Of a stretch of DNA of 64,000 bases, positions 24,125 to 55,758 are shown piece by piece. Below the pieces are notes generated by a model that saw only the letters and a program-made list of their open reading frames with translations, was not told where the DNA came from and ran no database searches. A program made the position numbers and the translations under genes. Location of the stretch: assembly GCF_046105845.1 (NCBI RefSeq), contig NZ_CP151004.1, one strand, 5' to 3'. The first letter of the stretch is position 1, and each line of letters starts with the position of its first letter. This DNA is from Escherichia coli. Its GTDB lineage: Bacteria > Pseudomonadota > Gammaproteobacteria > Enterobacterales > Enterobacteriaceae.

Positions 24125-24146
24125 GTCTGTCAGCATGTTGTTTTTG

Positions 24147-26614: not shown

Positions 26615-26620
26615 TCCTTC

Positions 26621-26660: not shown

Positions 26661-26794
26661 GTTCCGTGCCCCTTCCTGATTCCCGACATAATGAATTGCC
26701 TCTGGCCAGTTGGTGTCGTCGCAAGGTGGCCGTAGCATCGGGGGACTTCGCCCGTACGCACCAGAGCAGTCATGGCGTCAATTGAGAAGCGAAA

Positions 26795-27259
26795 ATGAAC
26801 TTTCATCAGTACTATCCTGTCGACATCGTCAACGGCCCCGGCACTCGCTGCACCCTGTTTGTCTCCGGGTGTGTTCATGAATGCCCCGGTTGCTATAACA
26901 AAAGCACATGGCGGGTAAATTCCGGTCAGCCATTTACCAAAGCAATGGAAGACCAGATCATTAACGATCTGAATGACACTCGCATCAAACGCCAGGGGAT
27001 TTCCCTCTCCGGCGGCGATCCGCTGCATCCGCAAAACGTGCCGGATATTCTGAAACTGGTACAACGCATCCGCGCCGAATGTCCGGGTAAAGACATTTGG
27101 GTGTGGACAGGCTATAAACTCGACGAACTCAACGCTGCGCAAATGCAGGTTGTTGATTTGATTAACGTACTGGTCGACGGCAAATTTGTGCAGGATTTAA
27201 AAGACCCTTCCCTGATCTGGCGCGGCAGCAGCAATCAGGTGGTGCATCATTTGCGATGA
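26795..27259 (+). CDS. nrdG: anaerobic RNR activating protein NrdG (radical SAM)
   Basis: 154-aa ORF with CxxxCxxC-type cluster (CVHECPGCYN). Confidence 0.95.
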   Translation: MNFHQYYPVDIVNGPGTRCTLFVSGCVHECPGCYNKSTWRVNSGQPFTKAMEDQIINDLNDTRIKRQGISLSGGDPLHPQNVPDILKLVQRIRAECPGKDIWVWTGYKLDELNAAQMQVVDLINVLVDGKFVQDLKDPSLIWRGSSNQVVHHLR

Positions 27260-27263
27260 TAAG

Positions 27264-27295
27264 TTCCCTGTTACCTGAGTGCAGGCAACAGGGAA
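27264..27295. terminator. bidirectional terminator hairpin between convergent nrdG and cybC
   Basis: ttccctgtt acctgagtgcaggc aacagggaa inverted repeat between the two stop codons. Confidence 0.6.
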
Positions 27296-27303
27296 ATAAG
27301 GAA

Positions 27304-27693
<390 letters not shown>

Positions 27694-27872
27694 TCACTTC
27701 CTTTTTTATTTACACTTCATCCTTCACACTGCCTCATCGACGGCTACGCTCATTCGCCCGGGTCACGTACTGCGAGTACGCTCCCCGGCTCTCATTCACT
27801 TTTCGTCTCGATGCAGTGCGAATGATTTTGTGTAATTTTTTAGTTTATAGCGCGGCAGGTCGCGCCAGTTTT

Positions 27873-29225
27873 TTACTGCCCGGCGATTTTCATCTCCGGC
27901 AACAGCACAGAACCACACTGTATATTACTGCGTGTTTCAATATCGTTACCGACGGTGACAATATTGCGCCACATATCTTTTAAATTACCTGCGATGGTGA
28001 TTTCGCTCACCGGATACTGAATTTCGCCATTCTCTACCCAGAAGCCCGCTGCACCACGGGAATAATCACCGGTAATGGCACTCACGCCCTGGCCCATCAG
28101 CTCCGTCACCACCAGCCCTGTGCCCATCTCTTTGAGCATTTGTTCGAAGCTTAGCCCTTGTCCGGCAATCCGCCAGTTGTGAATACCGCCCGCATGTCCG
28201 GTGCTTTTCAGCCCCAGTTTCCGCGCCGAATAGCTGGTCAGCAGCCACTGAGTCAGGATGCCATCTTTAATAATATCGCGACGCTCGGTGCGCACACCTT
28301 CGCTGTCGAATGGCGTCGACGCCAGCCCTTTCAGCAGATGCGGATGCTCTTCAATGGTCAGCCAGTCCGGCAGAATTTGTTTACCCAGCGAATCCAGCAG
28401 GAAGGTAGATTTACGGTAAACCGATCCACCCGCTATCGCCCCCACCAGATGGCCAAAAAGCCCGGTTGCCACTTCATTGGCAAAAATGACCGGCGCTTTC
28501 ATGGTGGAGAGTTTACGCGGTGACAGGCGCGATAAAGTGCGGCGAGCACAGTCGGCCCCGACCCACTCTGGCGTTTGCAGATCGCTCATCGCACGACCAA
28601 TGGTGTAGGCGTAATCACGCTCCATATCGCCATTTTCTTCGGCAATTACACAGCTGGAGAGCGAATGACGCGTTGAGCAGTAACCCTGCAACATGCCGTG
28701 GCTGTTGCCAAAAACTTTGACACCGTAGTGGCTGTTAAAGCTGCCACCTTCGGTATTGGTGATGCGTTTATCCGCCTGCAATGCCGCCTGTTCAGCGCGG
28801 GCCGCCAGTTCAATGGCTTCATCCGGGGAAACTTCCGCAGGGTGGAACAAGTCGAGATCCGGTGCGTCAAAGGCCAGCAGCTCTTTGTCTGCCACGCCGG
28901 CACAGGGATCTGGCGAGGTATAACGGGCAATATCCAGCGCCGCCTGTACGGTGCGGGCAATGGCCTGCGGGCTTAAATCGGTAGACGATGCGCTACCTTT
29001 GCGGTTCTGGTGATAAACAGTGATCCCCAGCGCGCCATCGCTATTGAATTCAACATTCTCCACTTCACCATAACGCGTGCTTACGCTAATGCCGGTGGTC
29101 TTGCTGACGGCAACTTCCGCACCGTCCGATTTGCCTGAGGCCAACTCCAGCGCAGTGGAAACTGCTTCTTCCAGAATCTTGCGCTGCGCTTCAACTTGAG
29201 AGATTACTTTCATTGCAAGTGCCAT
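27873..29225 (-). CDS. pmbA: metalloprotease PmbA (TldE)
   Basis: 450-aa [25 protein letters not shown]..., TldD/PmbA family. Confidence 0.95.
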
Positions 29226-29318
29226 AATGTAGAGAGTTTCTCTGAAGTCTAACAGAGAACCGTTTTTCAGTGCGCATCTTAACTGGTAACATTAGCCTCT
29301 TTTTTTAAGGAGCCTGAG

Positions 29319-29870
29319 ATGACTAAGCAGCCCGAAGACTGGCTCGACGACGTTCCCGGTGATGACATCGAAGACGAAGACGATGAAATTATCTGGGTCA
29401 GTAAAAGTGAAATTAAACGTGATGCCGAGGAGCTAAAACGCCTTGGCGCGGAAATTGTTGATCTGGGGAAAAACGCGCTGGATAAGATCCCGTTAGATGC
29501 GGATCTGCGCGCGGCTATTGAGCTCGCCCAGCGTATTAAGATGGAAGGTCGCCGCCGCCAGTTGCAGCTCATCGGTAAGATGCTGCGCCAGCGCGACGTA
29601 GAGCCTATTCGTCAGGCGCTGGATAAGCTGAAAAACCGTCACAACCAGCAGGTGGTACTGTTCCATAAACTGGAAAACCTGCGCGATCGTCTGATCGATC
29701 AAGGTGATGATGCCATCGCTGAAGTATTGAATCTGTGGCCCGATGCCGATCGTCAGCAGCTGCGTACTCTGATCCGCAACGCGAAGAAAGAGAAAGAAGG
29801 GAATAAGCCGCCGAAATCCGCACGCCAGATTTTCCAGTATCTGCGCGAACTGGCGGAGAATGAAGGGTAA
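29319..29870 (+). CDS. darP: ribosome-associated protein DarP (YjgA, DUF615)
   Basis: 183-aa charged [38 protein letters not shown]...; AAGGAG RBS. Confidence 0.9.
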
Positions 29871-29896
29871 TTTTCGTTGTTGATGTGAGTATGGTT

Positions 29897-29929
29897 TGCC
29901 GGATACGGTGTAAACGCCTTATCCGGCAA
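29897..29929. repeat. REP element
   Basis: tgccggatacggtgtaaacgccttatccggcaa between the yjgA and mpl stops. Confidence 0.6.
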
Positions 29930-29952
29930 TGCTATATCAGGCTGAGGCCGAA

Positions 29953-31326
29953 TTACTGCGCAGCTTCCGCCTTCTTCGCCAGCCCATCCAGCAGTTTCTG
30001 ATGGATCCCACCAAAACCGCCGTTGCTCATCACCAGAATATGGTCGCCAGGCTGAGCGGTTTTCACCACCATATCTGCCAGCGTATCCACATCGCCGCTC
30101 CAGTGTGCAGGCTGAACGCAGGCTTCTGCCACTTCTGCCACCTGCCACGGAATATGCGACGGTTGCAGCAGGAAGACTTCATCGGCACGACCTAGTGACG
30201 GTGCCAAATCATCTTTGCAGATCCCCATTTTCATGGTATTCGAACGCGGCTCCAGCACAGCAATAATGCGCGCCGTACCACCAACTTTGCCACGCAGCGC
30301 CGCCAGCGTTGCCAGAATCGCAGTCGGGTGATGGGCGAAATCGTCATATACCGTCACGCCATTGGCTTCACCACGCAACTCCAGACGGCGACGAGCATTA
30401 ATAAACGAACCCAGCGCGTTAGCGGCATCTGCCGGCGCTACGCCAACATGGCGGGCCGCCGCAATCGCCATCAGGCCATTATGCATATTATGTTCGCCTA
30501 CCAGCGACCATTTCACTTCGCCCACTTTTTCGCCATCCAGCAAGACTTCCCATTCGGAAGCATCGGTGGTTAGCTTTTTCGCCTGCCAGTGACCCTGCTC
30601 GCCCACCAGCTCCTGCTCGCTCCAGCAGCCCATCGCCATGGTCTGTTTCAGGTTGATGTCGTTTTCCGGCCAGATAATACGGCCCTGCCCCGGAACGATA
30701 CGCACCAGATGGTGGAACTGTTTCTGGATCGCTTTCAGGTCGTCAAAGATATCGGCGTGATCGAACTCAAGGTTGTTGAGGATCAGCGTACGCGGGCAGT
30801 AATGGACAAATTTAGAGCGTTTGTCGAAAAAGGCGCAGTCGTACTCATCCGCTTCGATAACAAAGAAGTCGCTTTCGCCCAGACGCGCCGAGACCTCAAA
30901 GTTCCCCGGCACACCGCCGATCACAAATCCGGGTTTGTAACCGCACTGTTCCAGAATCCAGGTCGCCATTCCCGCCGTGGTGGTTTTGCCGTGTGTACCG
31001 GCGACGGCCAGCACCCAGCGGTCGCGCAGCACAAAATCGTGCAGCCACTGCGGACCTGACATATAAGGGATGTTTTTTTCCAGTACCGCTTCCACACACG
31101 GATTTCCACGGGTCATGGCGTTGCCAATAATCACCAGATCCGGCTGCGGGTCGAGCTGGCTGGCATCGTAACCCTGAATCAGTTCAATGCCTTGCTTCTC
31201 AAGTAAGGTGCTCATCGGCGGATACACATTGGCGTCCGAACCCGTTACTTCATGGCCTAACTGGCGCGCCAGCATCGCCAGACCGCCCATAAACGTGCCA
31301 CAAATTCCTAAAATATGAATGCGCAT
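29953..31326 (-). CDS. mpl: UDP-N-acetylmuramate:L-alanyl-gamma-D-glutamyl-meso-DAP ligase Mpl
   Basis: 457-aa Mur-ligase family ORF (GTHGKTTT P-loop). Confidence 0.95.
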   Translation of the reverse strand: MRIHILGICGTFMGGLAMLARQLGHEVTGSDANVYPPMSTLLEKQGIELIQGYDASQLDPQPDLVIIGNAMTRGNPCVEAVLEKNIPYMSGPQWLHDFVLRDRWVLAVAGTHGKTTTAGMATWILEQCGYKPGFVIGGVPGNFEVSARLGESDFFVIEADEYDCAFFDKRSKFVHYCPRTLILNNLEFDHADIFDDLKAIQKQFHHLVRIVPGQGRIIWPENDINLKQTMAMGCWSEQELVGEQGHWQAKKLTTDASEWEVLLDGEKVGEVKWSLVGEHNMHNGLMAIAAARHVGVAPADAANALGSFINARRRLELRGEANGVTVYDDFAHHPTAILATLAALRGKVGGTARIIAVLEPRSNTMKMGICKDDLAPSLGRADEVFLLQPSHIPWQVAEVAEACVQPAHWSGDVDTLADMVVKTAQPGDHILVMSNGGFGGIHQKLLDGLAKKAEAAQ

Positions 31327-31501
31327 ACGTCACTATCCTTTTTTAATCTGCCGCTCATTTTACGCATATGTCGGGCAAGTGAGAAACGCATTTCAGGATA
31401 ATCCGTAATTTGCTGGCGCGATTCACCTGAGCGCAACATTGAGATTATTTGTTAAGATTGTTGCGGTCGCTTTACTCCATAAACATTGCAGGGAAAGTTT
31501 T

Positions 31502-32500
31502 ATGAAAACGTTAGGTGAATTTATTGTCGAAAAGCAGCACGAGTTTTCTCATGCTACCGGTGAGCTCACTGCTTTGCTGTCGGCAATAAAACTGGGCGCC
31601 AAGATTATCCATCGCGATATCAACAAAGCAGGACTGGTTGATATCCTGGGTGCCAGCGGTGCTGAGAATGTGCAGGGCGAGGTTCAGCAGAAACTCGACT
31701 TGTTCGCTAATGAAAAACTGAAAGCCGCACTGAAAGCACGCGATATCGTTGCAGGCATTGCCTCTGAAGAAGAAGATGAGATTGTCGTCTTTGAAGGCTG
31801 TGAACACGCAAAATACGTGGTGCTGATGGACCCCCTGGATGGCTCGTCCAACATCGATGTTAACGTCTCTGTCGGTACCATTTTCTCCATCTACCGCCGC
31901 GTTACGCCTGTTGGCACGCCGGTAACGGAAGAAGATTTCCTCCAGCCTGGTAACAAACAGGTTGCGGCAGGTTACGTGGTATACGGCTCCTCTACCATGC
32001 TGGTTTACACCACCGGATGCGGTGTTCACGCCTTTACTTACGATCCTTCGCTCGGCGTTTTCTGCCTGTGCCAGGAACGGATGCGCTTCCCGGAGAAAGG
32101 CAAAACCTACTCCATCAACGAAGGAAACTACATTAAGTTTCCGAACGGGGTGAAGAAATACATTAAATTCTGCCAGGAAGAAGATAAGTCCACCAATCGC
32201 CCGTATACCTCGCGTTATATCGGCTCACTGGTTGCGGATTTCCACCGTAACCTGCTGAAAGGTGGGATTTATCTCTACCCAAGCACCGCCAGCCACCCGG
32301 ACGGTAAACTGCGTTTACTGTATGAGTGCAACCCGATGGCATTCCTGGCGGAACAAGCGGGCGGTAAAGCGAGCGATGGCAAAGAGCGTATTCTGGATAT
32401 CATCCCGGAAACCCTGCACCAGCGCCGTTCGTTCTTTGTCGGCAACGACCATATGGTTGAAGATGTCGAACGCTTTATCCGTGAGTTCCCGGACGCGTAA
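31502..32500 (+). CDS. fbp: fructose-1,6-bisphosphatase class 1 Fbp
   Basis: 332-aa ORF from ATG 31502 ([15 protein letters not shown]...), FBPase motifs. Confidence 0.97.
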
Positions 32501-32508
32501 TCCCCTGC

Positions 32509-32534
32509 GCCTCTCCACACGGAGAGGCGTTTTT
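32509..32534 (+). terminator. rho-independent terminator of fbp
   Basis: cgcctctccacacggagaggcg hairpin followed by TTTTT. Confidence 0.8.
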
Positions 32535-33528
32535 ATCGCTGCGCAATGTTGACTCTTGTCACTGGCGAACTCTGACGATTCTCCCACAGCACTGTTAATC
32601 CACGCTGTAATGCTATAAAAATAAACAACAAAATGCCGATGGCGATTTTCGTCCACCAGGAACTCAGCGTACCGTCAAAGTTGATATATGTCTGAATCAG
32701 TCCCTGAATCGCCACACCAAATAGCGTTCCCAGCACCGTTCCTACCCCACCACTTAACAACGTACCGCCAATCACCACCGACGCGATGGCGTCCAGTTCC
32801 ACACCTACGCCCGCCAGCGCATATCCGGCCTGGGTATAAATCGAGAAGACAATCCCCGCCAGCGTTGCCAGTCCGGTGGAAAGCATATAAATGCGAATAG
32901 TGGTGCTGCGCGTGGAAATCCCCATCAGGTTCGCCGACGTTGTGTTGCCGCCAATGGCGTACACCTGATTACCAAAACGCGTACGATGCGCGAGGAATAT
33001 GCCGATAACCACCACCGCCAGCATCAGCAGCCCCATCGCACTTAAACGACCGCCGCCAGGGATTTTCCATGCAAGGCTTGAGAGCGTGTCATAAACAGGA
33101 TGATTTATCGGGATCGACTCTTCCGAAACGAGATAGCTGACGCCACGCAAAAAGAACATTCCTGCCAGAGTAATGATAAACGCCGGGATCTTCAGGGCGT
33201 CGATCAAAAGCCCCATAAATGCGCCAAAGGCACAGCCCATCACCAGCACCAGTGGAAACGCCAGCAGCGGCGAGAGGCCGAAATCGCCAATCACTTTTGC
33301 CAGAAACACGCCGGTAAAGGCGATCACCGAACCGACGGAGAGATCGATCCCACCGGAGAGGATCACAAAGGTCATGCCAACAGCGATGATCCCCAGAAAA
33401 GCGTTATCGGTCAGGATATTGCAGATCACTCTTGTGGAAGCAAAACCGGGAAACTGGGTCAGGCAGTAGAAATAACCCAGCACAAAGACGCCGATGGTGA
33501 TCATCAGTGGCAAATTACGTTTTATCAC
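32533..33528 (-). CDS. yjfF: galactofuranose ABC transporter permease YjfF
   Basis: 331-aa multi-pass ORF; GTG start at 33526-33528; overlaps ytfT stop. Confidence 0.9.
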   Translation of the reverse strand: MIKRNLPLMITIGVFVLGYFYCLTQFPGFASTRVICNILTDNAFLGIIAVGMTFVILSGGIDLSVGSVIAFTGVFLAKVIGDFGLSPLLAFPLVLVMGCAFGAFMGLLIDALKIPAFIITLAGMFFLRGVSYLVSEESIPINHPVYDTLSSLAWKIPGGGRLSAMGLLMLAVVVIGIFLAHRTRFGNQVYAIGGNTTSANLMGISTRSTTIRIYMLSTGLATLAGIVFSIYTQAGYALAGVGVELDAIASVVIGGTLLSGGVGTVLGTLFGVAIQGLIQTYINFDGTLSSWWTKIAIGILLFIFIALQRGLTVLWENRQSSPVTRVNIAQR

Positions 33529-34540
33529 GGCTACGCACTCCTTTAATCAGACTGATAAAGCGTTGCGACTGGACAATCAGCACGCAAAGCACCACCACCG
33601 CTTTCACCACCTGGTTCATCTCCGGCGGAAAGCCCGAAAGCAAAATTCCGGTGTTCATCCCCTGAATAATCAGCGCCCCCACCACCGAAAGCAGTAGGTT
33701 AAAACGTCCGCCCATCAGCGAACCACCGCCAATCACCACCGCGAGAATGGCGTCCAGCTCCAGCCATAATCCGGCGTTGTTGGCATCGGCACCGCGAATA
33801 TCCGCCGCCACGATAATGCCCGCAATCGCCGCACACAGCCCGCTCAACACGTAGGTGAGCATGACGATGATTCGCGTGTTGACTCCGGCATTTTTTGCCG
33901 CCCGAATGTTGATACCAACGGCTTCGATAAACATCCCCAGCGCCGTTTTGCGGGTCAACAGCCAGAACAGGAGAAGCGTCAGCACCGCGATAATGACCGG
34001 CGTTGGCAGGAACAATAGCGATCCGCTGCCAAACCATGAGAGATCCGGCGAGTTAAACGTGACGATCTGTCCGGAGGTGATCAGTTGCGCCACGCCGCGC
34101 CCGGCGACCATCAGGATCAGGGTGGCAACAAACGGCTGAATTTTGAGGATCGCTACCAGTATGCCGTTCCACAATCCCGCCAGGATGCCAGTGCCCAGGG
34201 AGCTTAACAAAACAATCGGCAGGCTGAATCCAGCGACCGTCATCGCAGCCGTTGTGGCTCCGGCGATAGCCATCACCGCCCCCACGGAGAGATCAATCCC
34301 ACCAGTGGCGATCACCAGCGTCATACCAATCGCCAACAGCGCAACGGGGGCGGCGCGATTAAGAATGTCGATAGGGCTACCGAACAAACGCCCATCCTGA
34401 AGCACCACCTGCCAGAAATGCGGGGCTACCAGGCTGTCGACCAGCAGCACCAGCAATAGTGCTACCAGCTGCGGCATTCCTGTTGGCCAGCGAAAGCGCC
34501 TTTTCGGCGGCGTAGTGTCCGGGAGAGATTGAGGCATCAC
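33515..34540 (-). CDS. ytfT: galactofuranose ABC transporter permease YtfT
   Basis: 341-aa form from GTG 34538-34540 (MMPQSLPDTT...) with AAGGAG RBS; track start 34561 is a TTG further upstream. Confidence 0.9.
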   Translation of the reverse strand: MMPQSLPDTTPPKRRFRWPTGMPQLVALLLVLLVDSLVAPHFWQVVLQDGRLFGSPIDILNRAAPVALLAIGMTLVIATGGIDLSVGAVMAIAGATTAAMTVAGFSLPIVLLSSLGTGILAGLWNGILVAILKIQPFVATLILMVAGRGVAQLITSGQIVTFNSPDLSWFGSGSLLFLPTPVIIAVLTLLLFWLLTRKTALGMFIEAVGINIRAAKNAGVNTRIIVMLTYVLSGLCAAIAGIIVAADIRGADANNAGLWLELDAILAVVIGGGSLMGGRFNLLLSVVGALIIQGMNTGILLSGFPPEMNQVVKAVVVLCVLIVQSQRFISLIKGVRSRDKT

Positions 34541-34550
34541 ACTGTTCTCC

Positions 34551-36053
34551 TTACGCCGCAATGGCGTTCATGATCGCCGGAACGGAAAGCTCTGCCAGCG
34601 GGATCTCCGCTACCTGTTTGCGATCGCGCATGATAATCACCCGGTCGGCATAGCCCACCAGCTCTTCCAGCTCGGAGGAGATCACCAGCAGCGCCAGTCC
34701 ATCGGCGCACAGCGTTTCAATCAGGCGGATGATCTCGGCGTGGGCACCAACATCAATTCCGCGCGTTGGCTCGTCGAGGATCAGAAATTGCGGTCGGGTC
34801 AGTAGCCAACGTGAAAGCAACACTTTTTGCTGATTGCCGCCGGAGAGAAATTCAATCGGTTGTTCGGTTGAAGGTGTGCGAATGCCAAGCTGGCGGATAA
34901 AGCGTTGGGCAATCTCTTGCTGTTCTTTGCGGGAAATCGGTCGTAGCCAGCCGCGCTGGGCCTGGAGAGCGAGGATGATATTTTCCCGCACCGAGGCGGC
35001 GGCGATGATGCCATCGGTTTTCCTGTCTTCCGGGCAGAAGCCGATGCCCAGTACCGAAGCCTGATGTGGCGATCGCAGGGTTTGCGGTTTGCCTTTGATC
35101 AACGCCGTGCCGCTATCAGCTGGTTTGATACCGAAGATCACTTCGGCAGTTTCGGTACGTCCTGATCCCAGCAAGCCTGCCAGACCGACGATCTCGCCGG
35201 GGCGTACTTCGAGATCAAACGGTGCGATCGTTCCTTTTTTGCCGTAATTTTTGAACGCGGCAACGGGTTTGTCGCTCAGCAATGTTCGTCCGGCACGCTG
35301 TAGCGCGTGGGTGTCCAGCTCGCGCCCCAGCATCATTTTTACCAGTTCGATCTGCGGTAGCTCGCGGGTTTCCCGACAGCCTACGAAACTGCCGTTGCGT
35401 AAGACGGTGATCCGATCGCTGACCTGATAGACCTGATCGAGAAAGTGAGTAACGAAGATCAGGCTGACGCCGCGATCGCGCAACTGACGCATCAGGCCAA
35501 ACAGTAACTCTACTTCCTGAGTGTCGAGGCTGGCGGTGGGTTCATCGAGGATCAGCACTTTGGCGGAGAGATCGATGGCCCGGCAAATGGCGACGATTTG
35601 CTGCATCGCGACTGAAAAGCGGTTGAGCGGTTCGCGCACGTCGAGGGAGAAACCGTAAGATGCCATCAGTTCGGTGGCGCGCTTTTCCATCTCTTTACGG
35701 CGTAGAAGGCCGAAACGTTTGGGTTCGCGACCTATGAATAGATTATCAGCGACCGACATATTGGGTAGCAGGTTGACTTCCTGATAGACGGTGCCGATGC
35801 CGAGTTGTTGTGCATGGGCGGTATTTTTCGGTGAAATAGTCTGGCCTTCCAGCCAGATGGTGCCACGATCGGCGTGGTAGACACCGGTTAATGCTTTGAT
35901 TAGCGTTGATTTTCCCGCCCCGTTTTCACCGAGCAGCGCCATGATTTCACCACGGCGCAGGCTGAAATCAACGTTGTCTAACGCTTTGACACCGGGGAAA
36001 AATTTACTTAATCCTTCGGTGCGGAGGATTTCCTGGTGTTGGTTAGTATTCAT
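34551..36053 (-). CDS. ytfR: galactofuranose ABC transporter ATP-binding protein YtfR (duplicated ABC domains)
   Basis: 500-aa form from ATG 36051-36053 (MNTNQHQEILRTEGL...); two Walker A/ABC signature sets. Confidence 0.9.
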   Translation of the reverse strand: MNTNQHQEILRTEGLSKFFPGVKALDNVDFSLRRGEIMALLGENGAGKSTLIKALTGVYHADRGTIWLEGQTISPKNTAHAQQLGIGTVYQEVNLLPNMSVADNLFIGREPKRFGLLRRKEMEKRATELMASYGFSLDVREPLNRFSVAMQQIVAICRAIDLSAKVLILDEPTASLDTQEVELLFGLMRQLRDRGVSLIFVTHFLDQVYQVSDRITVLRNGSFVGCRETRELPQIELVKMMLGRELDTHALQRAGRTLLSDKPVAAFKNYGKKGTIAPFDLEVRPGEIVGLAGLLGSGRTETAEVIFGIKPADSGTALIKGKPQTLRSPHQASVLGIGFCPEDRKTDGIIAAASVRENIILALQAQRGWLRPISRKEQQEIAQRFIRQLGIRTPSTEQPIEFLSGGNQQKVLLSRWLLTRPQFLILDEPTRGIDVGAHAEIIRLIETLCADGLALLVISSELEELVGYADRVIIMRDRKQVAEIPLAELSVPAIMNAIAA

Positions 36054-36074
36054 AGTTTCCCCCGTTGTAAAGCG

Positions 36075-36180
36075 TGCGCCAGATAAGACACAACAGCGTC
36101 GCATCAGGCATCTCGCACAACCGCCGGATGCGGCGTGAATGCCTTATCCGGCGGCCCACAAGTCGGCATCAGGCATTGAT
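36075..36180. repeat. REP/BIME cluster between ytfR and ytfQ
   Basis: gccggatgcggcgtgaatgccttatccggc and flanking gcatcaggc motifs. Confidence 0.55.
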
Positions 36181-36185
36181 GCCCC

Positions 36186-37142
36186 TCAATACCCCATGTT
36201 TTTCTTCTTCTCTAACTCTTCTTTTGCGGTATCAGGCAGGTAAAGGGTGGACTTGGTCAGGGTCAGCTTTTCAGGCATGGTGCCGTCTTTTTTATATTTC
36301 TCCAGCGCATCAAAAGCGGGGCCTGCCATGTTCGGCGTCAGTTCAACGCTGGCGTTCGCTTCGCCATCAATCATCGCTTTGTAGATGTCCGGCACGCCGT
36401 CGATAGAGCCTGTCAGGATATCTTTGCCCGGTTTCAGGCCCGCTTCTTTAATTGCCTGAATTGCACCAATCACCATGTCATCGTTATGGGCGTAAACCAT
36501 GCAGATGTTTTTGCCGTTGTTTTCCGCTTTGATAAAGCTCTCCATGACTTCTTTGCCTTTACTGCGGGTGAAGTCACCTGACTGCGAGCGGATAATTTTG
36601 ATATTTGGCGCATTCTTTATGGCTTCGGCAAAGCCTTTCTTACGGTCAATGGCGACGCTGGCCCCAACAGTGCCCTGCAGCTCCACCACGTTGCATGGTT
36701 TGCCATTCACTTCTTTTACCAGCCAGTCACCAATCAACTTGCCTTCGAGGATGTTGTCGGCAGTGACGGTGGTCATATAGAGAGACTTGTCTTTCACATC
36801 GATGGAACGATCGAGCAAGAAGACCGGGATTTCGGCATCTTTCGCCTCTTTTAATACCGGCTCCCAACCGGTCGCTACCACTGGAGCGATAAAGATCGCA
36901 TCCACCCCTTGTGCAACGAAGGAACGTACCGCTTTAATCTGGTTTTCCTGCTTTTGTTGACCATCGGCGATTTTCAGTGTGATACCGCGTTTTTCGGCTT
37001 CACTTTTCGCCACGTTGGTTTCAGCGGCACGCCAGCCGGATTCCGATCCGACCTGCGAAAATCCAACGGTTAATGGAGCGGCCAACGCCATAGACGACAT
37101 GGCTGCCGAGACTGCAGAGACTACAAGTAAGCGTTTCCACAT
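36186..37142 (-). CDS. ytfQ: periplasmic galactofuranose-binding protein YtfQ
   Basis: 318-aa ORF with signal peptide MWKRLLVVSAVSAAMSSMALA, sugar-binding protein fold family. Confidence 0.92.
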   Translation of the reverse strand: MWKRLLVVSAVSAAMSSMALAAPLTVGFSQVGSESGWRAAETNVAKSEAEKRGITLKIADGQQKQENQIKAVRSFVAQGVDAIFIAPVVATGWEPVLKEAKDAEIPVFLLDRSIDVKDKSLYMTTVTADNILEGKLIGDWLVKEVNGKPCNVVELQGTVGASVAIDRKKGFAEAIKNAPNIKIIRSQSGDFTRSKGKEVMESFIKAENNGKNICMVYAHNDDMVIGAIQAIKEAGLKPGKDILTGSIDGVPDIYKAMIDGEANASVELTPNMAGPAFDALEKYKKDGTMPEKLTLTKSTLYLPDTAKEELEKKKNMGY

Positions 37143-37212
37143 AGGGTTGTCCTCGTCGGGGTAATTATTATTGGTGAAAAGATGTTCGCGAAAAAACTAT
37201 AGACAATTCGTT

Positions 37213-37233
37213 ATGTAACGGATTGCGTTACAT
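37213..37233. promoter_or_regulatory. perfect palindrome ATGTAACG-N5-CGTTACAT upstream of the ytfQRT-yjfF operon (candidate operator)
   Basis: 8-bp perfect inverted arms with 5-bp spacer, about 70 bp upstream of ytfQ start, in the ytfQ/ppa divergent region. Confidence 0.4.
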
Positions 37234-37451
37234 CACACTTCAAAAAAGTAAATAAAACGTTAATCACAAGTTTGTAATCGCTTTCATCTCACTATGAAAA
37301 ATGCGGCTACGGTTATGGATTTTCCTGCTCTTTAAACCACCTTAAAACTGGCTAAAAAGGAAAATGAAGAAGAAAACAAGCGAAGACATTCGGCGCGAGT
37401 TGGCTATAATACTCGGCACTTGTTTGCCACATATTTTTAAAGGAAACAGAC

Positions 37452-37982
37452 ATGAGCTTACTCAACGTCCCTGCGGGTAAAGATCTGCCGGAAGACATCT
37501 ACGTTGTTATTGAGATCCCGGCTAACGCAGATCCGATCAAATACGAAATCGACAAAGAGAGCGGCGCACTGTTCGTTGACCGCTTCATGTCCACCGCGAT
37601 GTTCTATCCGTGCAACTACGGTTACATCAACCACACCCTGTCTCTGGACGGTGACCCGGTTGACGTACTGGTCCCGACTCCGTACCCGCTGCAGCCGGGT
37701 TCTGTGATCCGTTGCCGTCCGGTTGGCGTTCTGAAAATGACCGACGAAGCCGGTGAAGATGCGAAACTGGTTGCGGTTCCGCACAGCAAGCTGAGCAAAG
37801 AATACGATCACATTAAAGACGTTAACGATCTGCCTGAACTGCTGAAAGCACAGATCGCTCACTTCTTCGAGCACTACAAAGACCTCGAAAAAGGCAAGTG
37901 GGTGAAAGTTGAAGGCTGGGAAAACGCAGAAGCCGCTAAAGCTGAAATCGTTGCCTCCTTCGAGCGCGCAAAGAATAAATAA
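37452..37982 (+). CDS. ppa: inorganic pyrophosphatase Ppa
   Basis: 176-aa [41 protein letters not shown]... Confidence 0.97.
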
Positions 37983-38000
37983 GTTCTTCTAGCGCAATAA

Positions 38001-38036
38001 CCCTGAACGCCGGGCTTCGGTTAGTAAGGGTTTTTT
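38001..38036 (+). terminator. probable ppa terminator
   Basis: Imperfect GC-rich stem followed by T6 (ccctgaacgccgggcttcggttagtaagggtttttt). Confidence 0.5.
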
Positions 38037-38060
38037 ATGCCCGCGATAAATAAACACGCC

Positions 38061-38411
38061 TTATTCCACCACCGCCTGCAAACGTAATAACGCCTCTTCC
38101 ACCACTTCACCCGCAGCCAGACCAATACGCTTTGCCAGCCGGGCGCGTAGATCCATCATCCGCACCTGATTCACCAGCACCACGCCGTGCACATCGCCTT
38201 CTTCGCAATGTAAAGGAACGCTGAATCCTGCATAACGGGCAAAATTTCCGCCCTGCGTAATGGGGGCCACCAGCGTCATTCCCAGTTGATTAAAGGCTTG
38301 AACGGAGAGCACAAGCGCAGGTCGACCAGCACCTTGCTGTTCATGGCCGCTTGCTGGATCAAAGCCAACCAGCACAATGTCTCCCCGTTCAAATTCACTT
38401 TTCTTTACCAT
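38061..38411 (-). CDS. chpB: MazF-like endoribonuclease toxin ChpB
   Basis: 116-aa PemK/MazF-family ORF (MVKKSEFERGDIVLVGFDPASGHEQQGAGRPALVLS...). Confidence 0.9.
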   Translation of the reverse strand: MVKKSEFERGDIVLVGFDPASGHEQQGAGRPALVLSVQAFNQLGMTLVAPITQGGNFARYAGFSVPLHCEEGDVHGVVLVNQVRMMDLRARLAKRIGLAAGEVVEEALLRLQAVVE

Positions 38412-38656
38412 ATTTCGTCACCCGCAGGGGTGGATTTACCCCAGACATCCTGCTCGCTAAGTTCCGTGGCGTTCATGTCACACTGTGCCAGCAGTTCATC
38501 AAGCGAGTAGCGCCTGGAGATGGGTGTCAGAATCAGTTGATTGTTGCTCACTTGCGCCTCCACGCTCTGCCCCGGCCGTAAGTTAAGTTCTTTCATCACA
38601 ACATTAGGAATGACCATACCTGAACTATTCCCCCATCTTTTTATGGTAATACGCAT
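38405..38656 (-). CDS. chpS: antitoxin ChpS (AbrB/MazE-like)
   Basis: 83-aa ORF MRITIKRWGNSSGMVIPN... from ATG 38654-38656 with AAGGAGG RBS; stop overlaps chpB start. Confidence 0.9.
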   Translation of the reverse strand: MRITIKRWGNSSGMVIPNVVMKELNLRPGQSVEAQVSNNQLILTPISRRYSLDELLAQCDMNATELSEQDVWGKSTPAGDEIW

Positions 38657-38670
38657 CTGCACCTCCTTAA

Positions 38671-38687
38671 GTTATACAAAGTATAAC
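38671..38687. promoter_or_regulatory. palindromic candidate operator of the chpSB promoter
   Basis: GTTATACaaaGTATAAC perfect 7-bp inverted repeat 15 bp upstream of chpS. Confidence 0.5.
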
Positions 38688-38828
38688 TCACGGTGCTACA
38701 GGAAACGTTTTACCCCTGCGCATTTGTGAACGCCAGCAGAGTTTTTTATGCGTTAACAGATATGGAAAGCGGCTCGGAGAGAAAAGCAAAAGGTGAGGGA
38801 ATTACAAAACAGAATGCGAGTCGTCTCG

Positions 38829-38856
38829 CAAAAAACAACGCCACCCGAAGGTGGCG
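38829..38856 (-). terminator. rho-independent terminator of the tamA-tamB-ytfP operon
   Basis: Minus strand: cgccaccttcgggtggcg hairpin followed by TTGTTTTTTG, 6 bp past the ytfP stop. Confidence 0.7.
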
Positions 38857-38861
38857 TATGG

Positions 38862-39203
38862 TTACTTATCCCTGTCTAACCAGTCGCCGCTTTCAATTAG
38901 CTTTAATCCATCGACGGGTCGTTGATAAACGTACATCCATGCACTCCCGTACGGCGTCTGAATCAACTGGCGCGCGTATTCACCGCCCCTGGTGCGCAAG
39001 GCATCAAGTTCGGCCAGCGTGGCGTTGTCAATACGATAAACTTCACCGTGTACTGTTCCGTTCCCCGGAACTGCGCCTGGATAGTGGCCCAGGCTATACA
39101 ACTGGTAGTTATCGATACTGAAATCGCCCAGTAACTGGGCATTGGTCATCCAGTGACTGTTGCCTTGTTTGTGGCGTAAACTGCCGTAGACAAATATTCG
39201 CAT
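38862..39203 (-). CDS. ytfP: gamma-glutamylcyclotransferase-family protein YtfP
   Basis: 113-aa ORF MRIFVYGSLRHKQGNSHW... (GGCT/AIG2-like YGSL motif). Confidence 0.9.
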   Translation of the reverse strand: MRIFVYGSLRHKQGNSHWMTNAQLLGDFSIDNYQLYSLGHYPGAVPGNGTVHGEVYRIDNATLAELDALRTRGGEYARQLIQTPYGSAWMYVYQRPVDGLKLIESGDWLDRDK

Positions 39204-39205
39204 TG

Positions 39206-44757
<5,552 letters not shown>

Positions 44758-45881: not shown

Positions 45882-47225
45882 ATGTTAAACAGTATTTTAG
45901 TCATACTCTGTTTGATCGCTGTAAGTGCGTTCTTCTCGATGTCCGAGATCTCGCTTGCCGCCTCACGCAAAATCAAACTTAAACTGCTGGCTGATGAAGG
46001 CAATATAAATGCCCAACGCGTTCTGAATATGCAGGAAAATCCCGGCATGTTCTTTACCGTGGTCCAAATCGGTCTGAACGCAGTGGCGATTCTCGGCGGT
46101 ATCGTCGGTGATGCGGCATTTTCTCCAGCTTTTCACAGCCTGTTCTCCCGCTATATGTCGGCAGAACTCTCTGAGCAACTGAGCTTTATTCTCTCTTTCT
46201 CGTTAGTGACTGGCATGTTTATCCTGTTTGCGGATTTAACCCCGAAACGCATCGGTATGATTGCGCCAGAAGCGGTGGCTTTGCGTATCATCAACCCGAT
46301 GCGCTTCTGCCTGTACGTTTGCACCCCGCTGGTGTGGTTCTTCAACGGACTGGCGAACATAATCTTCCGTATTTTCAAACTGCCAATGGTACGTAAAGAT
46401 GACATCACTTCTGATGACATCTACGCGGTAGTGGAAGCCGGTGCGCTGGCGGGCGTGTTACGTAAACAGGAACACGAGCTGATTGAAAACGTCTTTGAAC
46501 TAGAATCCCGTACCGTTCCGTCTTCAATGACACCGCGTGAAAACGTGATTTGGTTTGATCTCCACGAAGATGAGCAAAGTCTGAAGAATAAGGTGGCGGA
46601 ACATCCGCACTCTAAGTTCCTCGTCTGTAATGAAGATATTGACCACATCATCGGCTATGTCGATTCTAAAGACCTGCTGAACCGCGTGCTGGCTAACCAA
46701 AGCCTGGCACTGAACAGCGGCGTACAAATTCGCAACACGCTGATTGTGCCGGATACGTTAACCCTTTCAGAGGCGTTGGAAAGTTTTAAAACCGCAGGTG
46801 AAGACTTCGCGGTGATCATGAACGAGTACGCGCTGGTAGTGGGGATCATCACCCTCAACGACGTGATGACCACGCTGATGGGCGATCTGGTCGGTCAGGG
46901 GCTGGAAGAGCAGATTGTCGCCCGTGATGAGAACTCATGGCTGATTGACGGCGGCACTCCGATTGACGACGTCATGCGCGTGCTGGATATTGACGAGTTC
47001 CCGCAGTCGGGCAACTACGAAACCATCGGCGGCTTTATGATGTTTATGCTGCGTAAGATCCCGAAACGCACCGATTCGGTGAAATTCGCCGGCTACAAAT
47101 TTGAAGTGGTGGATATCGATAACTACCGCATCGACCAGCTGCTGGTGACCCGAATCGACAGCAAGGCCACCGCCCTTTCGCCAAAACTGCCTGACGCTAA
47201 AGATAAAGAAGAAAGCGTCGCGTAA
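45882..47225 (+). CDS. ytfL: UPF0053 inner membrane protein YtfL (DUF21-CBS-CorC/HlyC family)
   Basis: 447-aa ORF with N-terminal TM domain, CBS pair and CorC_HlyC C-terminus. Confidence 0.92.
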   Translation: MLNSILVILCLIAVSAFFSMSEISLAASRKIKLKLLADEGNINAQRVLNMQENPGMFFTVVQIGLNAVAILGGIVGDAAFSPAFHSLFSRYMSAELSEQLSFILSFSLVTGMFILFADLTPKRIGMIAPEAVALRIINPMRFCLYVCTPLVWFFNGLANIIFRIFKLPMVRKDDITSDDIYAVVEAGALAGVLRKQEHELIENVFELESRTVPSSMTPRENVIWFDLHEDEQSLKNKVAEHPHSKFLVCNEDIDHIIGYVDSKDLLNRVLANQSLALNSGVQIRNTLIVPDTLTLSEALESFKTAGEDFAVIMNEYALVVGIITLNDVMTTLMGDLVGQGLEEQIVARDENSWLIDGGTPIDDVMRVLDIDEFPQSGNYETIGGFMMFMLRKIPKRTDSVKFAGYKFEVVDIDNYRIDQLLVTRIDSKATALSPKLPDAKDKEESVA

Positions 47226-47817: not shown

Positions 47818-48372
47818 ATGACCCTACGCAAGATTCTGGCACTCACCTGCCTGCTGTTGCCGATGATGGCTTCCGCACATCAGTTCGAAACCGGTCAGCG
47901 AGTGCCGCCGATTGGCATTACCGATCGTGGCGAGTTGGTGCTTGATAAAGATCAGTTTAGCTACAAAACCTGGAACAGCGCGCAGTTAGTGGGAAAAGTG
48001 CGAGTACTGCAACATATTGCTGGTCGCACCTCTGCAAAAGAGAAAAACGCGACGCTGATTGAAGCGATTAAATCAGCAAAGTTACCGCACGATCGTTACC
48101 AGACCACCACCATTGTTAACACCGACGACGCGATTCCGGGTTCCGGCATGTTTGTGCGCAGCAGTCTGGAGAGTAATAAAAAGCTTTATCCCTGGTCGCA
48201 GTTTATTGTCGATAGCAATGGCGTCGCGCGCGGTGCCTGGCAGCTGGATGAAGAAAGTTCCGCTGTAGTGGTGCTGGATAAAGACGGTCGCGTGCAATGG
48301 GCCAAAGACGGGGCGCTCACACCGGAAGAGGTACAGCAAGTGATGGGCCTGCTGCAAAAGTTGCTCAAATAA
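47818..48372 (+). CDS. ytfJ: periplasmic protein YtfJ (DUF1434)
   Basis: 184-aa ORF with signal peptide MTLRKILALTCLLLPMMASA; AAGAAGGA RBS. Confidence 0.9.
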   Translation: MTLRKILALTCLLLPMMASAHQFETGQRVPPIGITDRGELVLDKDQFSYKTWNSAQLVGKVRVLQHIAGRTSAKEKNATLIEAIKSAKLPHDRYQTTTIVNTDDAIPGSGMFVRSSLESNKKLYPWSQFIVDSNGVARGAWQLDEESSAVVVLDKDGRVQWAKDGALTPEEVQQVMGLLQKLLK

Positions 48373-48461
48373 TGGCAATAACATAAATTCTGCAAAAATA
48401 ATTTTCCCCTATCGTTATCTATGGGATAGGGGAATTAAGCCTCTGAGTTCTTACGCCGAAC

Positions 48462-49373
48462 TCATACTGGTAACGCTAGTTGCTTTTTTTTAAACGCCTC
48501 AATGGTCGATTTATATTTCTCGCAAATCTTTTCTTCGGTAATATCACTATCTGCGGCCAGATTCGCACTTACTATCGCATCCACTTGTTCGGCTAATTCG
48601 ACTTGTTGGCAACCTGCATTAACCAGAAAATTATAAATAAGAGAGTAATCTTCATCCTCCAAAACAACAGAGGAACCATTACGAAAACGTTCATCCCCTC
48701 CATAGATTTTAAGCGCAAAGCCCAAAGATTCTATGACTATGGCAAAATTATCATCAATTATTTTTTCGTAAATATACCATCCATCGCATTCTTTAATTCC
48801 ACCTCCTGGAATTTGGAGGTCAAATTTACCCCGTTTTAATTTACTTACTATATCATCCAATACAGCATAACCTAAAGACACGTCACCAAACGCCTGGCGA
48901 ATATAACCTTTAATCCTTTCCGGTATGTCAGACTGTTTTTTCTGCAAAATATCCCAGGCATACAATCTTCTGTTTTGTTCTAACGGAAACTCGCGGTTTT
49001 TGAAATCCATGAATGAGTTATACTCATTTATTGTTATGGGAATTTCTTCGTATTCAAATCCACTGCCTCGCAATGTCATTATATATTCGGCACCGTTATC
49101 TTTAAGGCTGAAACTGATAAGAAACTTATCCATGGTGTTAACAGTTTCATTTTTTGATGAAAGTACCTGATAACTATTTTTATCAATCTGAGTTGCGCAA
49201 CGAAAGAACTCCCGCAAAGTTAACAGGCTATCATAATTTGAAATCCAATCTTTTTTATTAAATGCATGCTGGATATTGTTAAAAAAATTGTTTGAATGTG
49301 TTTTTGTATGCGATGATTTTATAAATAACTCCACCGCACCAATAAAATTATTGTGTCTGATCCTGGGTAACAT
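48462..49373 (-). CDS. ytfI: uncharacterized AT-rich protein YtfI
   Basis: 303-aa ORF, low GC, no recognisable motifs. Confidence 0.8.
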   Translation of the reverse strand: MLPRIRHNNFIGAVELFIKSSHTKTHSNNFFNNIQHAFNKKDWISNYDSLLTLREFFRCATQIDKNSYQVLSSKNETVNTMDKFLISFSLKDNGAEYIMTLRGSGFEYEEIPITINEYNSFMDFKNREFPLEQNRRLYAWDILQKKQSDIPERIKGYIRQAFGDVSLGYAVLDDIVSKLKRGKFDLQIPGGGIKECDGWYIYEKIIDDNFAIVIESLGFALKIYGGDERFRNGSSVVLEDEDYSLIYNFLVNAGCQQVELAEQVDAIVSANLAADSDITEEKICEKYKSTIEAFKKKQLALPV

Positions 49374-49584
49374 ATGGCTACCTTATTTTATTTGGTTATT
49401 TTATGTCGCCATTAAATATCTCATTATAGAAGTAAACTATCAAAAAACGCTCATTATTAAAATGTAACTTATTAGCAATTGAATTTTTGCACTTTAAATA
49501 CAATCTCTTTTTATTTATAACTTTTTAGGTTGGGAGAAATCAGGATGGCAGAATCAGGAAATACACTGTTTCTGCCATCTGAAT

Positions 49585-50325
49585 TTAGTAAATAGACACT
49601 CTGAATCCCGGATTCAGGAACGACTCGCGCGGAGTGTAATCCAGCGGTTTACCCTGCCAGTCGTGAACGTGCGCTCCGGCAGCTGCGGCCACAGCATGTC
49701 CAGCGGCGGTGTCCCAAATATTCGTTGGTCCGAAGCGCGGGTACAGCTGCGCCTGTCCTTCCGCCACCAGGCAGAATTTCAGCGAAGAGCCGATGGACGT
49801 GGTCTGATGTTCGCCAAGCTGTTGCAGATACTCTTTCAGCTCCGCATCTGCATGGGAACGGCTGATAACCACCAGCGGCGGGCGCGCATCGCGGACCTGA
49901 ATCTGCTTGCGCACACCGCACTCTTCTTTCCAGGCTTTGCCTTCTGCCGCGCTGTACATTACGTTCATTACCGGCGCATACACCACACCTAAAATCGGTT
50001 TTCCATGGTCAATGAGCGCAATGTTAACGGTGAATTCGCCATTACGTTTAATAAACTCTTTAGTACCATCCAGTGGGTCTACCAGCCAGTAACGCTGCCA
50101 GTGCTGACGGACTTCCCAACCGGGAGGATCTTCTTCAGAAAGGACCGGAATATCCGGTGTCAGCGTACGTAAACCGTCCATAATAACGGTGTGAGCGGCA
50201 ATATCCGCTGCCGTTACCGGAGAATTGTCCGCTTTGCTGACGACGTCCATCGGTTTCGTCCCGTCGTAGACCTGCATAATGGCATCGCCTGCATTCCGTG
50301 CAAGCTGGCATACTTGATCTAACAT
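49585..50325 (-). CDS. cysQ: 3'(2'),5'-bisphosphate nucleotidase CysQ
   Basis: 246-aa ORF with inositol monophosphatase-family motifs (DPLDGT, WDTAAG). Confidence 0.95.
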
Positions 50326-54013: not shown

Positions 54014-54988
54014 ATGCCAGTAATGATTAGCGGCGTGCTGTACGCCCTGTTAGCAGGGTTGATGTGGGGGCTTATTTTTGTCGGGCCGTTGATCGTGCCG
54101 GAATACCCGGCGATGTTGCAGTCGATGGGGCGTTATCTGGCGTTAGGGTTAATTGCGCTGCCCATTGCCTGGCTGGGACGCGTGCGTCTGCGTCAGTTGG
54201 CGCGTCGCGACTGGCTTACCGCCTTGATGCTCACCATGATGGGCAACCTCATCTATTACTTCTGCCTTGCCAGTGCCATTCAACGTACTGGCGCGCCTGT
54301 TTCCACGATGATTATTGGCACCCTGCCGGTGGTGATTCCCGTTTTTGCCAATCTGCTTTATAGCCAGCGCGACGGCAAACTCGCGTGGGGAAAACTCGCC
54401 CCGGCACTGATTTGTATTGGCATCGGCCTGGCGAGTGTGAATATTGCTGAGTTAAACCACGGACTCCCCGATTTTGACTGGGCACGTTATACCTCTGGCA
54501 TCGTGCTGGCGTTAGTTTCCGTGGTCTGCTGGGCATGGTATGCCCTGCGCAACGCCCGCTGGCTGCGGGAAAATCCCGACAAACATCCGATGATGTGGGC
54601 GACGGCGCAGGCGCTGGTCACGCTGCCGGTTTCGCTTATCGGCTATCTCGTCGCTTGTTACTGGCTGAATACGCAAACGCCGGACTTCTCCCTACCTTTT
54701 GGCCCCCGTCCGCTTGTATTTGTTAGCCTGATGATTGCGATAGCTGTGCTTTGCTCATGGGTCGGCGCACTTTGCTGGAACGTCGCCAGCCAGCGATTAC
54801 CAACGGTGATTCTCGGGCCACTGATTGTCTTCGAAACGCTGGCAGGTTTGCTGTACACCTTTTTGTTACGCCAGCAAATGCCGCCACTAATGACGCTGAG
54901 CGGTATCGCACTGTTAGTGGTTGGCGTGGTCATTGCGGTCAGAGCAAAACCAGAAAAACCTTTAACTGAATCTGTTTCAGAAAGTTGA
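54014..54988 (+). CDS. ytfF: inner membrane transporter YtfF (EamA/DMT family)
   Basis: 324-aa ten-helix-type hydrophobic ORF; an alternative ATG at 54023 is possible. Confidence 0.85.
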   Translation: MPVMISGVLYALLAGLMWGLIFVGPLIVPEYPAMLQSMGRYLALGLIALPIAWLGRVRLRQLARRDWLTALMLTMMGNLIYYFCLASAIQRTGAPVSTMIIGTLPVVIPVFANLLYSQRDGKLAWGKLAPALICIGIGLASVNIAELNHGLPDFDWARYTSGIVLALVSVVCWAWYALRNARWLRENPDKHPMMWATAQALVTLPVSLIGYLVACYWLNTQTPDFSLPFGPRPLVFVSLMIAIAVLCSWVGALCWNVASQRLPTVILGPLIVFETLAGLLYTFLLRQQMPPLMTLSGIALLVVGVVIAVRAKPEKPLTESVSES

Positions 54989-55046
54989 CACGCTGGCAGT
55001 GAGTTAAATAAGCCTCTGCTACGTAAGGGTTATAGCTTTTGCCTTA

Positions 55047-55069
55047 AAGGTGCATTTAAAATGAATCTT
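55047..55069 (+). promoter_or_regulatory. NsrR-type operator upstream of ytfE
   Basis: AAGGTGCATTT-a-AAATGAATCTT: 11-bp inverted half-sites resembling the NsrR consensus (AAGATGCATTT), about 30 bp upstream of ytfE. Confidence 0.5.
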
Positions 55070-55095
55070 ATCTTATTAAGAATGAGGTATCAGCT

Positions 55096-55758
55096 ATGGC
55101 TTATCGCGACCAACCTTTAGGTGAACTGGCGCTCTCTATTCCTCGCGCTTCGGCTCTGTTTCGTAAATATGATATGGATTACTGCTGCGGCGGTAAGCAA
55201 ACGCTGGCGCGTGCGGCGGCACGTAAAGAACTGGATGTTGAGGTCATTGAAGCTGAGCTGGCAAAGCTTGCTGAACAACCGATTGAGAAAGACTGGCGTA
55301 GCGCCCCGCTGGCAGAAATCATCGACCATATCATCGTGCGCTACCACGATCGTCACCGCGAGCAACTGCCGGAGCTGATCCTGCAAGCGACTAAAGTCGA
55401 ACGCGTTCACGCCGACAAACCGAGCGTTCCAAAAGGGCTGACAAAATACCTGACTATGCTGCATGAAGAGCTTTCCAGCCACATGATGAAAGAAGAGCAG
55501 ATCCTCTTCCCGATGATCAAACAAGGCATGGGCAGCCAGGCAATGGGGCCAATCAGCGTAATGGAAAGCGAGCACGATGAAGCGGGTGAACTGCTGGAAG
55601 TAATCAAACACACTACCAATAACGTCACACCGCCGCCGGAAGCCTGCACCACCTGGAAAGCGATGTATAACGGCATTAATGAACTGATTGATGACCTGAT
55701 GGAGCACATCAGTCTGGAAAACAATGTGCTGTTTCCGCGCGCACTGGCGGGTGAGTGA
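55096..55758 (+). CDS. ytfE: iron-sulfur cluster repair di-iron protein YtfE (RIC)
   Basis: 220-aa ORF with ScdA_N domain (DMDYCCGG) and hemerythrin-like histidines. Confidence 0.95.

Follow-up and report, generated by a model that had tools for sequence, protein, structure and literature searches.

A likely allele of the ytfE NsrR operator in Escherichia coli with one lineage-level and one strain-private base

Results and Discussion

The 23-mer AAGGTGCATTTAAAATGAATCTT, which is located at positions 55047-55069 of the 64-kb stretch of E. coli DNA analysed here (the window) and ends 26 nt before the ATG of ytfE, is with a probability of about 0.9 the NsrR operator of ytfE in the form carried by this strain; this kind of site is already known. 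Two of its bases differ from the operator of strain CFT073. The G at position 4 is a minor allele that was inherited in the lineage of the window, and the A at position 18 reads as a recent change in this strain.

Features of the ytfE upstream region

The site consists of two arms of 11 nt around one central base. Nine of the 11 positions pair between the arms, and the mismatches are in the pairs 4/20 and 6/18 (for the coordinates of all features see Table 1). When the window was searched with the perfect palindrome AAGATGCATTTNAAATGCATCTT and up to three mismatches were allowed, there was a single match in 64 kb, at 55047-55069, and 100 dinucleotide-preserving shuffles of the window gave no match at all. 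The general repeat search did not list this position. Since its exact seeds are unsuited to arms that are only 1 nt apart, this is no evidence against the inverted repeat.

Table 1. Features in and around the ytfE operator (positions in the window)
Feature	Position	Strand	Basis or remark
NsrR operator of ytfE (very probable), 11-1-11 inverted repeat AAGGTGCATTT-A-AAATGAATCTT	55047..55069	.	sequence, position, matrix, conservation
Left half-site AAGGTGCATTT	55047..55057	+	off consensus at position 4 only
Right half-site, minus strand AAGATTCATTT	55059..55069	-	off consensus at position 6 only (operator position 18 on the plus strand)
G, operator position 4 (-8 from the centre), lineage-level minor allele	55050..55050	+	allele counts
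A, operator position 18 (+6 from the centre), apparently strain-private C>A	55064..55064	+	same-lineage comparison
ytfE, iron-sulfur cluster repair di-iron protein, 220 aa	55096..55758	+	ORF; Pfam ScdA_N + Hemerythrin; RefSeq orthologues
ytfF (EamA/DMT transporter), upstream neighbour, bounds the 107-nt intergenic region	54023..54988	+	ORF, Pfam
GAGG, ribosome-binding site of ytfE	55084..55087	+	sequence; kept in 16/16 aligned species
TAAAAT, candidate -10 hexamer in the invariant operator centre	55057..55062	+	by inspection of the sequence
Second conserved upstream block AAGGGTTATAGC	55025..55036	+	11-22 nt upstream of the operator; conserved in 16 Enterobacteriaceae sequences, flanks not

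The downstream gene is ytfE, since its product has the ScdA_N and Hemerythrin domains, and the gene order in the window (ytfH, qorB, ytfF, ytfE, cycA) is as in E. coli. The same operator was recovered in a scan of species-representative genomes in 15 other Enterobacteriaceae, 25-27 nt from ytfE. According to our tblastn search no NsrR homologue is encoded within the 64-kb window; judged from the K-12 map, nsrR presumably lies about 19 kb beyond its end.

The half-site consensus of NsrR, which is reportedly due to Partridge in 2009, is AANATGCATTT. The consensus used here combines this sequence with the sites tabulated in PMC5320621. Each half-site of the window agrees with it at 10 of 11 positions, and the spacing between them is exactly 1 nt. 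The 11-1-11 layout, a matrix score in the proper range and a location in a promoter of the NsrR regulon are all found. When the bases are numbered from the central one (position 12), position 6 is -6 and position 18 is +6. The pair G-6/C+6, which belongs to the core gATGyAT-N5-ATrCATc, is not present in both half-sites, because the left one has G at position 6 and the right one A at position 18. Nor is the operator identical to that of K-12 or CFT073, from which it differs at three and two positions, respectively.

Comparison with known NsrR sites

The ytfE operator AAGATGCATTTAAAATGCATCTT of strain CFT073 (Mehta et al. 2015, PMC5320621, Table 4) has the same locus, length, 11-1-11 layout and spacing to the ATG. 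It is identical to the operator of the window at 21 of 23 bases, and the flanking 131 bp are essentially identical. The differences are G for A at position 4 and A for C at position 18; thus the perfect palindrome of CFT073 becomes one with 9/11 complementary positions in the window. In CFT073 the operator lies under an NsrR ChIP-seq peak with 9.65-fold enrichment and is the top-scoring 11-1-11 site of the genome, and ytfE shows 70-fold induction under nitrate/NO conditions (PMC5320621).

The K-12 operator AAGATGCATTTAAAATACATCTT (sequence from BW25113) is orthologous, can be aligned base for base and has the same spacing to the ATG. It differs from that of the window at positions 4, 17 and 18, K-12 itself being imperfect at position 17. 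This site was reportedly described by Bodenmiller and Spiro in 2006 and by Partridge et al. in 2009. Binding of NsrR in K-12 was detected by ChIP-chip, as cited in PMC5320621.

Two further E. coli alleles share one of the two bases each. The allele AAGGTGCATTTAAAATGCATCTT (G4 allele) belongs to the window's own lineage (e.g. GCA_018024015.1, strain 2012C-4221); it has C at position 18, is otherwise identical and is the immediate ancestor state of the operator in the window. The allele AAGATGCATTTAAAATGAATCTT (A4/A18 allele), present in E. coli FDAARGOS_1285, 98203 and isolate 624, shares the C>A at position 18, but in a background with A at position 4. The scan of species-representative genomes revealed AAGATGCATTTAAAATGAATCTT also in another bacterium, at 5993-6015 of locus L091, 17 nt upstream of a 285-aa ORF which is not ytfE. 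This ORF starts with MSDFVCYKRMPIWQKN and is TehB-like in appearance, as far as we can presume.

Both half-sites of the window have counterparts elsewhere in the NsrR regulon. The left half of the published ygbA site is identical to AAGGTGCATTT, and the right half-site type AAATGAATxTT also occurs in the ChIP-bound c0118/c0233 site and in the predicted ynfL site. The c0118/c0233 site AAGTTTTACTTCAAATGAATGTT of CFT073 has T at position 6 and A at position 18, and with approximately 9-11-fold ChIP enrichment it resembles ytfE (PMC5320621). Since this site is bound although it lacks the pair G-6/C+6 in both halves, the pair is not obligatory in E. coli.

More distant NsrR sites also help to place the base at position 18. 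A cross-phylum core motif, gATGyAT-N5-ATrCATc, was described for NsrR, and in the Neisseria sites T and A replace the symmetric G and C (Rodionov et al. 2005, PMC1274295). The right half-site of the operator in the window, with A at +6, is in the state described for Neisseria. In the NsrR-hmpA1 operator of S. coelicolor (Rohac et al. 2022, PMC9338935), likewise a pseudo-palindrome of 23 bp, both halves have the pair G-6/C+6; in the window, the left half-site has kept it and the right one has A at +6. In the remaining part of the site the sequence preference of the S. coelicolor protein differs from that of E. coli NsrR.

For scoring, we built a weight matrix from 25 published CFT073 NsrR sites, omitting ytfE; the training sites span 12.2-26.0 bits. 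The operator of the window scores 28.1 bits, compared to 30.8 bits for CFT073 ytfE, 30.0 bits for K-12 ytfE and 29.7 bits for the G4 allele. The best other known site is that of hcp with 26.0 bits, so that the site in the window outranks every known NsrR site except the other ytfE alleles. Because of this score, the operator is most likely still functional and predicted to be at most slightly weakened. The second-best position in the 64-kb window, at 8757, reaches 18.4 bits only. We rejected it (8757-8779, ATCATACATATAAATTGAATTTT) as an NsrR site, since it is an AT-rich palindrome in a region of tandem ARG boxes (ArgR operator). This region (8740-8800) shortly precedes a gene for ornithine carbamoyltransferase (8813-9817), which is probably argI.

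Frequency of the operator alleles in E. coli

Megablast needs an exact 28-mer, and exact queries of 33 nt therefore count the operator alleles directly. The 201 bp around the site are present in 5,415 of 5,426 complete E. coli genomes. The K-12 type of operator is the majority allele (4,176 of the 5,426 genomes), followed by the CFT073 type with 960, the G4 type with 75 and the A4/A18 type with 3. The exact 33-mer of the window was found in none of the 5,426 genomes, and the same holds for a form with A at both positions 17 and 18. Approximately 201 of the 5,415 genomes that contain the region (3.7%) match no exact operator type tested. Among 48 metagenome contigs with the ytfE promoter, 33 have the K-12 type, 13 the CFT073 type and two the G4 type; neither the 33-mer of the window nor a pattern requiring A at position 18 was detected in metagenome contigs. 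From an alignment of three sequences we had the impression that the operator is the sole polymorphic part of the intergenic region. This had to be given up, because larger samples revealed several polymorphic positions just upstream.

The best match of a 10-kb segment among the 5,426 complete genomes is only 98.6% identical. Most of the differences affect third codon positions; in ytfE there are seven nucleotide and no amino-acid differences. Judged from this level and pattern of divergence, the window represents a natural lineage outside the set of 5,426 complete genomes.

The first-pass annotation had described an inverted repeat of the NsrR type upstream of ytfE. This description holds, since the repeat aligns with the CFT073 and K-12 sites, has 28.1 bits and is unique in the window. 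The annotation had also pointed to a G in the left half-site where A was remembered, and had asked whether this is strain variation or the native base. The base at 55050 is indeed G, while K-12 and CFT073 have A, and the counts given above speak for strain variation: the operator is neither identical in all strains nor, in the window, equal to a published one. G4 is present in all near relatives of the window, and the corresponding position is occupied by A, C, T or G in other species and by A (20), T (21) or G (9) in the half-sites used for training. Considering the 75 genomes, the near relatives, the variability across species and the identical half-site of ygbA, we conclude that G4 is an ordinary inherited minor allele of E. 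coli at a position of low information. That the left half-site is variant was thus correctly seen. The description was incomplete in taking the right half-site as native, since the A at 55064 is the only strain-private base.

The base at position 18

At 55064 the window has A, while K-12, CFT073 and all eight of the eight same-lineage assemblies that we read have C. To fetch such assemblies, the exact QorB protein of the window was used as a lineage tag. In four of them (L172, L175, L176 and L177), 3.8-6.9 kb could be compared, and each agrees with the window at every base but 55064, where it has C. In the comparison with GCA_018024015.1, 55064 is the sole difference over 20,861 bp (43055-63915). 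Further 13,477 bp (27850-41326), which were reached via a look-up with Mpl, are identical in this assembly and in the window. Two more assemblies differ from the window at 4 and 16 positions, in each case including 55064. Exact-protein look-ups with Mpl, a 447-aa protein (45882-47225) and NrdD yielded mostly unrelated lineages, and for one ORF there was no exact record. On the basis of these comparisons, A18 is to be read as a recent derived C>A that is private to this strain and represents one SNP in approximately 34.3 kb of otherwise clonal sequence.

The same base is found in an unrelated background. When the right half was used as a query, G17/A18 was detected in three complete genomes originating from the USA, Egypt and Spain. 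These are the A4/A18 genomes. They belong to one clone, with 0-1 differences in 6 kb and A at position 4, and over the 6 kb around the locus this clone and the window share only 96.6% identity. The A4 background and the 96.6% identity indicate that the same C>A arose independently, at least twice. The three genomes differ from each other at a single base (locus position 2126). In two of them, FDAARGOS_1285 (L193) and 98203 (L194), ytfF (locus 1973-2938) is annotated as a pseudogene with an internal stop; in isolate 624 it is intact.

How much weight should be given to position 18 in NsrR binding? In the ytfE-linked operators it is C in 19 other Enterobacteriaceae genomes and T in one distant homologue. 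Over 162 strong matches in the species-representative genomes there are 118 C (73%), 37 T (23%), 7 A (4%) and no G. The equivalent position 6 of the training half-sites is G in 28, A in 10, T in 9 and C in 3 cases, and the matrix penalty for A18 is 1.5 bits. We infer for the right half-site no more than a modest weakening of about 1.5 bits, which would correspond to an approximately three-fold effect under an additive model. The crystal structure of the S. coelicolor NsrR-hmpA1 complex shows few base-specific contacts, among them one of Lys45 with G-6, and Thr41 closely approaches the base at +6 (PMC9338935). When T was modelled in place of C+6 it caused a clash, and the authors suggest that binding could be abolished (PMC9338935). 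Since position 18 is conserved and corresponds to a base-specific contact in the S. coelicolor complex, the weakening by A18 could be larger than the matrix suggests.

Promoter context and proposed mechanism

NsrR is a repressor of the Rrf2 family with a [4Fe-4S] cluster, which is nitrosylated by NO, whereby the protein is released from the DNA (PMC5320621, PMC9338935). At the orthologous site NsrR is bound, and ytfE is derepressed under NO-generating conditions (PMC5320621). A scan of 54900-55150 for sigma-70 promoters and terminators found neither, and a full-text literature search gave no usable description of a ytfE transcription start or promoter. Between the end of the operator and the ribosome-binding site GAGG there are only 14 nt, and therefore a workable transcription start should lie within or just after the operator. 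This geometry suggests that NsrR acts by occlusion of the core promoter.

Thus, in the mechanism that we propose, a [4Fe-4S]-NsrR dimer would occupy both 11-bp half-sites. The operator would cover the core promoter together with the region of the transcription start, and bound NsrR would exclude RNA polymerase. Upon nitrosylation of the cluster by NO, NsrR would leave the DNA, ytfE would be transcribed, and its product would repair damaged iron-sulfur clusters. If TAAAAT is the -10 hexamer, position 18 would lie two bases past its downstream end, a place where C suits the contact with sigma region 1.2 least. Speculatively, A18 could then affect promoter strength in addition to NsrR binding.

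The conserved block at 55025-55036 is probably a part of the ytfE promoter or a site of another regulator, to judge by its conservation. Its pattern across the 16 aligned ytfE promoters is AAAGGG(T/G)TATA, and with TAAAAT as the -10 hexamer its place would be at about -40 to -44. In several genera the block reads AGGGGTA, which we take to be a perfect NarL/NarP heptamer (AKRRGTA). Further upstream, Citrobacter, Enterobacter and Kluyvera have a CRP-like palindrome TGTGA-N6-TCACA, where E. coli has the end of ytfF.

Possible explanations for A18

Most simply, A18 would be a neutral or nearly neutral point mutation. The window and GCA_018024015.1 are not identical clones, since the tract 20473-27710 (treR/treBC-nrdDG-cybC area) is diverged by 1.1-1.4% between them, and thus a few point differences are to be expected. 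This tract is probably the result of recombination between two close relatives. It also contains an alignment gap at approximately 26620-27295, and a RelB/ParE toxin-antitoxin pair is located nearby. Somewhat uneasy for a purely neutral reading is the chance that a single random SNP hits the 23-bp operator, which is 23/34,338 or approximately 7e-4, although this figure was calculated after the fact.

Alternatively, the A at 55064 may have entered the source record through wrong base-calling, faulty assembly or editing. It is a singleton when compared to the eight same-lineage assemblies, and neither the 5,426 complete genomes nor the metagenome contigs contain the haplotype with A18. On the other hand, the remaining compared sequence is free of errors, and A18 is genuine in another clone, of which three genomes were sequenced independently. 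A base-calling error linked to methylation at ATGCAT was considered and rejected, because ATGCAT occurs six more times in the compared 34.3 kb and is intact each time, which argues against any systematic error connected to this motif. Altogether, we regard an artefact as unlikely.

It is also conceivable that the change is adaptive. It would provide a weaker NsrR half-site, a better base beside the putative -10 hexamer, or both, and so raise basal expression of ytfE in a lineage that meets host nitric oxide. This would be in line with the observations that no other base separates the window from the nearest assembly in the 34.3 kb compared and that the change lies inside the 23-bp operator (7e-4), that it hits the +6 base pair, which is a base-specific contact and otherwise conserved in the ytfE operators, and that a distant clinical clone (USA, Egypt, Spain) acquired the same base independently. 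However, in more than 5,400 genomes there are just two origins, the matrix predicts a small loss of 1.5 bits, and good binding of E. coli NsrR in vivo is seen at sites that have A at +6. Moreover, the chance argument is post hoc and concerns a site that was already flagged, and the role beside the -10 hexamer depends on a putative hexamer and on the literature on sigma region 1.2. We therefore find selection on this base quite unlikely. The more general proposal that C>A at +6 is a recurrent, positively selected operator-down (or promoter-up) mutation with at least two origins in clinical or surveillance E. coli appears more doubtful still. If it were true, basal YtfE would be raised, and the response to nitrosative stress would be tuned without touching the global regulator NsrR.

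Could the two deviations, one in each half-site, have inactivated the operator, so that ytfE is constitutive in this strain? Neither half-site of the window is a perfect consensus, and according to Partridge in 2009 both 11-bp motifs are reportedly needed for maximal repression of ytfE, which would count for a dead operator. This is nevertheless highly improbable, since each half-site still matches the consensus at 10 of 11 positions, the total score is above that of every validated site outside ytfE, and both variant half-sites occur in known NsrR targets. Finally, it is hardly believable that the palindrome is a chance AT-rich repeat, a terminator of ytfF or a binding site for a different regulator, e.g. 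IscR. Apart from the AT-richness of the region and the moderate scores that AT-rich palindromes of other regulators can reach (18.4 bits for the argI ARG box), we found no support for this. Against it, the shuffles gave no chance match, there is no terminator-like structure, a loop of 1 nt is too short for a hairpin, NsrR occupies the orthologous site in ChIP, and the 23 bp are conserved across genera.

Additional observations

Between ytfJ and cysQ, the window harbours a segment of approximately 1.2 kb (48359-49585) with an ORF of 303 aa (48462-49373, minus strand) that has no Pfam match. The segment is present in the lineage of the window and absent from six other E. coli loci, and it looks like a lineage-specific insertion. 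Downstream of ytfB, an insQ/tnpB gene of the IS605 family (59135-60343, 402 aa) adjoins a truncated gene of the TetR family. The relatives (L190-L192) vary in whether a Y1 transposase gene is called beside insQ/tnpB. In E. coli 09A19CPO004B (L197, NZ_CM151352.1; 1600-2150) the ytfE coding region is gone and an orphan operator is left. The sequence breaks right after the NsrR operator (...ATCTTATTAAGA) and is followed by a nikR fragment and rhsB.

Conclusions

The base at position 4 that was queried initially is ordinary variation in the textbook NsrR operator of ytfE, and its significance is small. Mildly surprising is the private and recurrent C>A at the +6 contact position. Together, the K-12, CFT073, G4, G4+A18 and A4+A18 forms constitute a natural allelic series at one operator, which includes a change at a contacted base. 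This series lets the contribution of single positions to repression by NsrR be tested in vivo, and it bears on the question whether clinical E. coli tune single members of a regulon via operator mutations.
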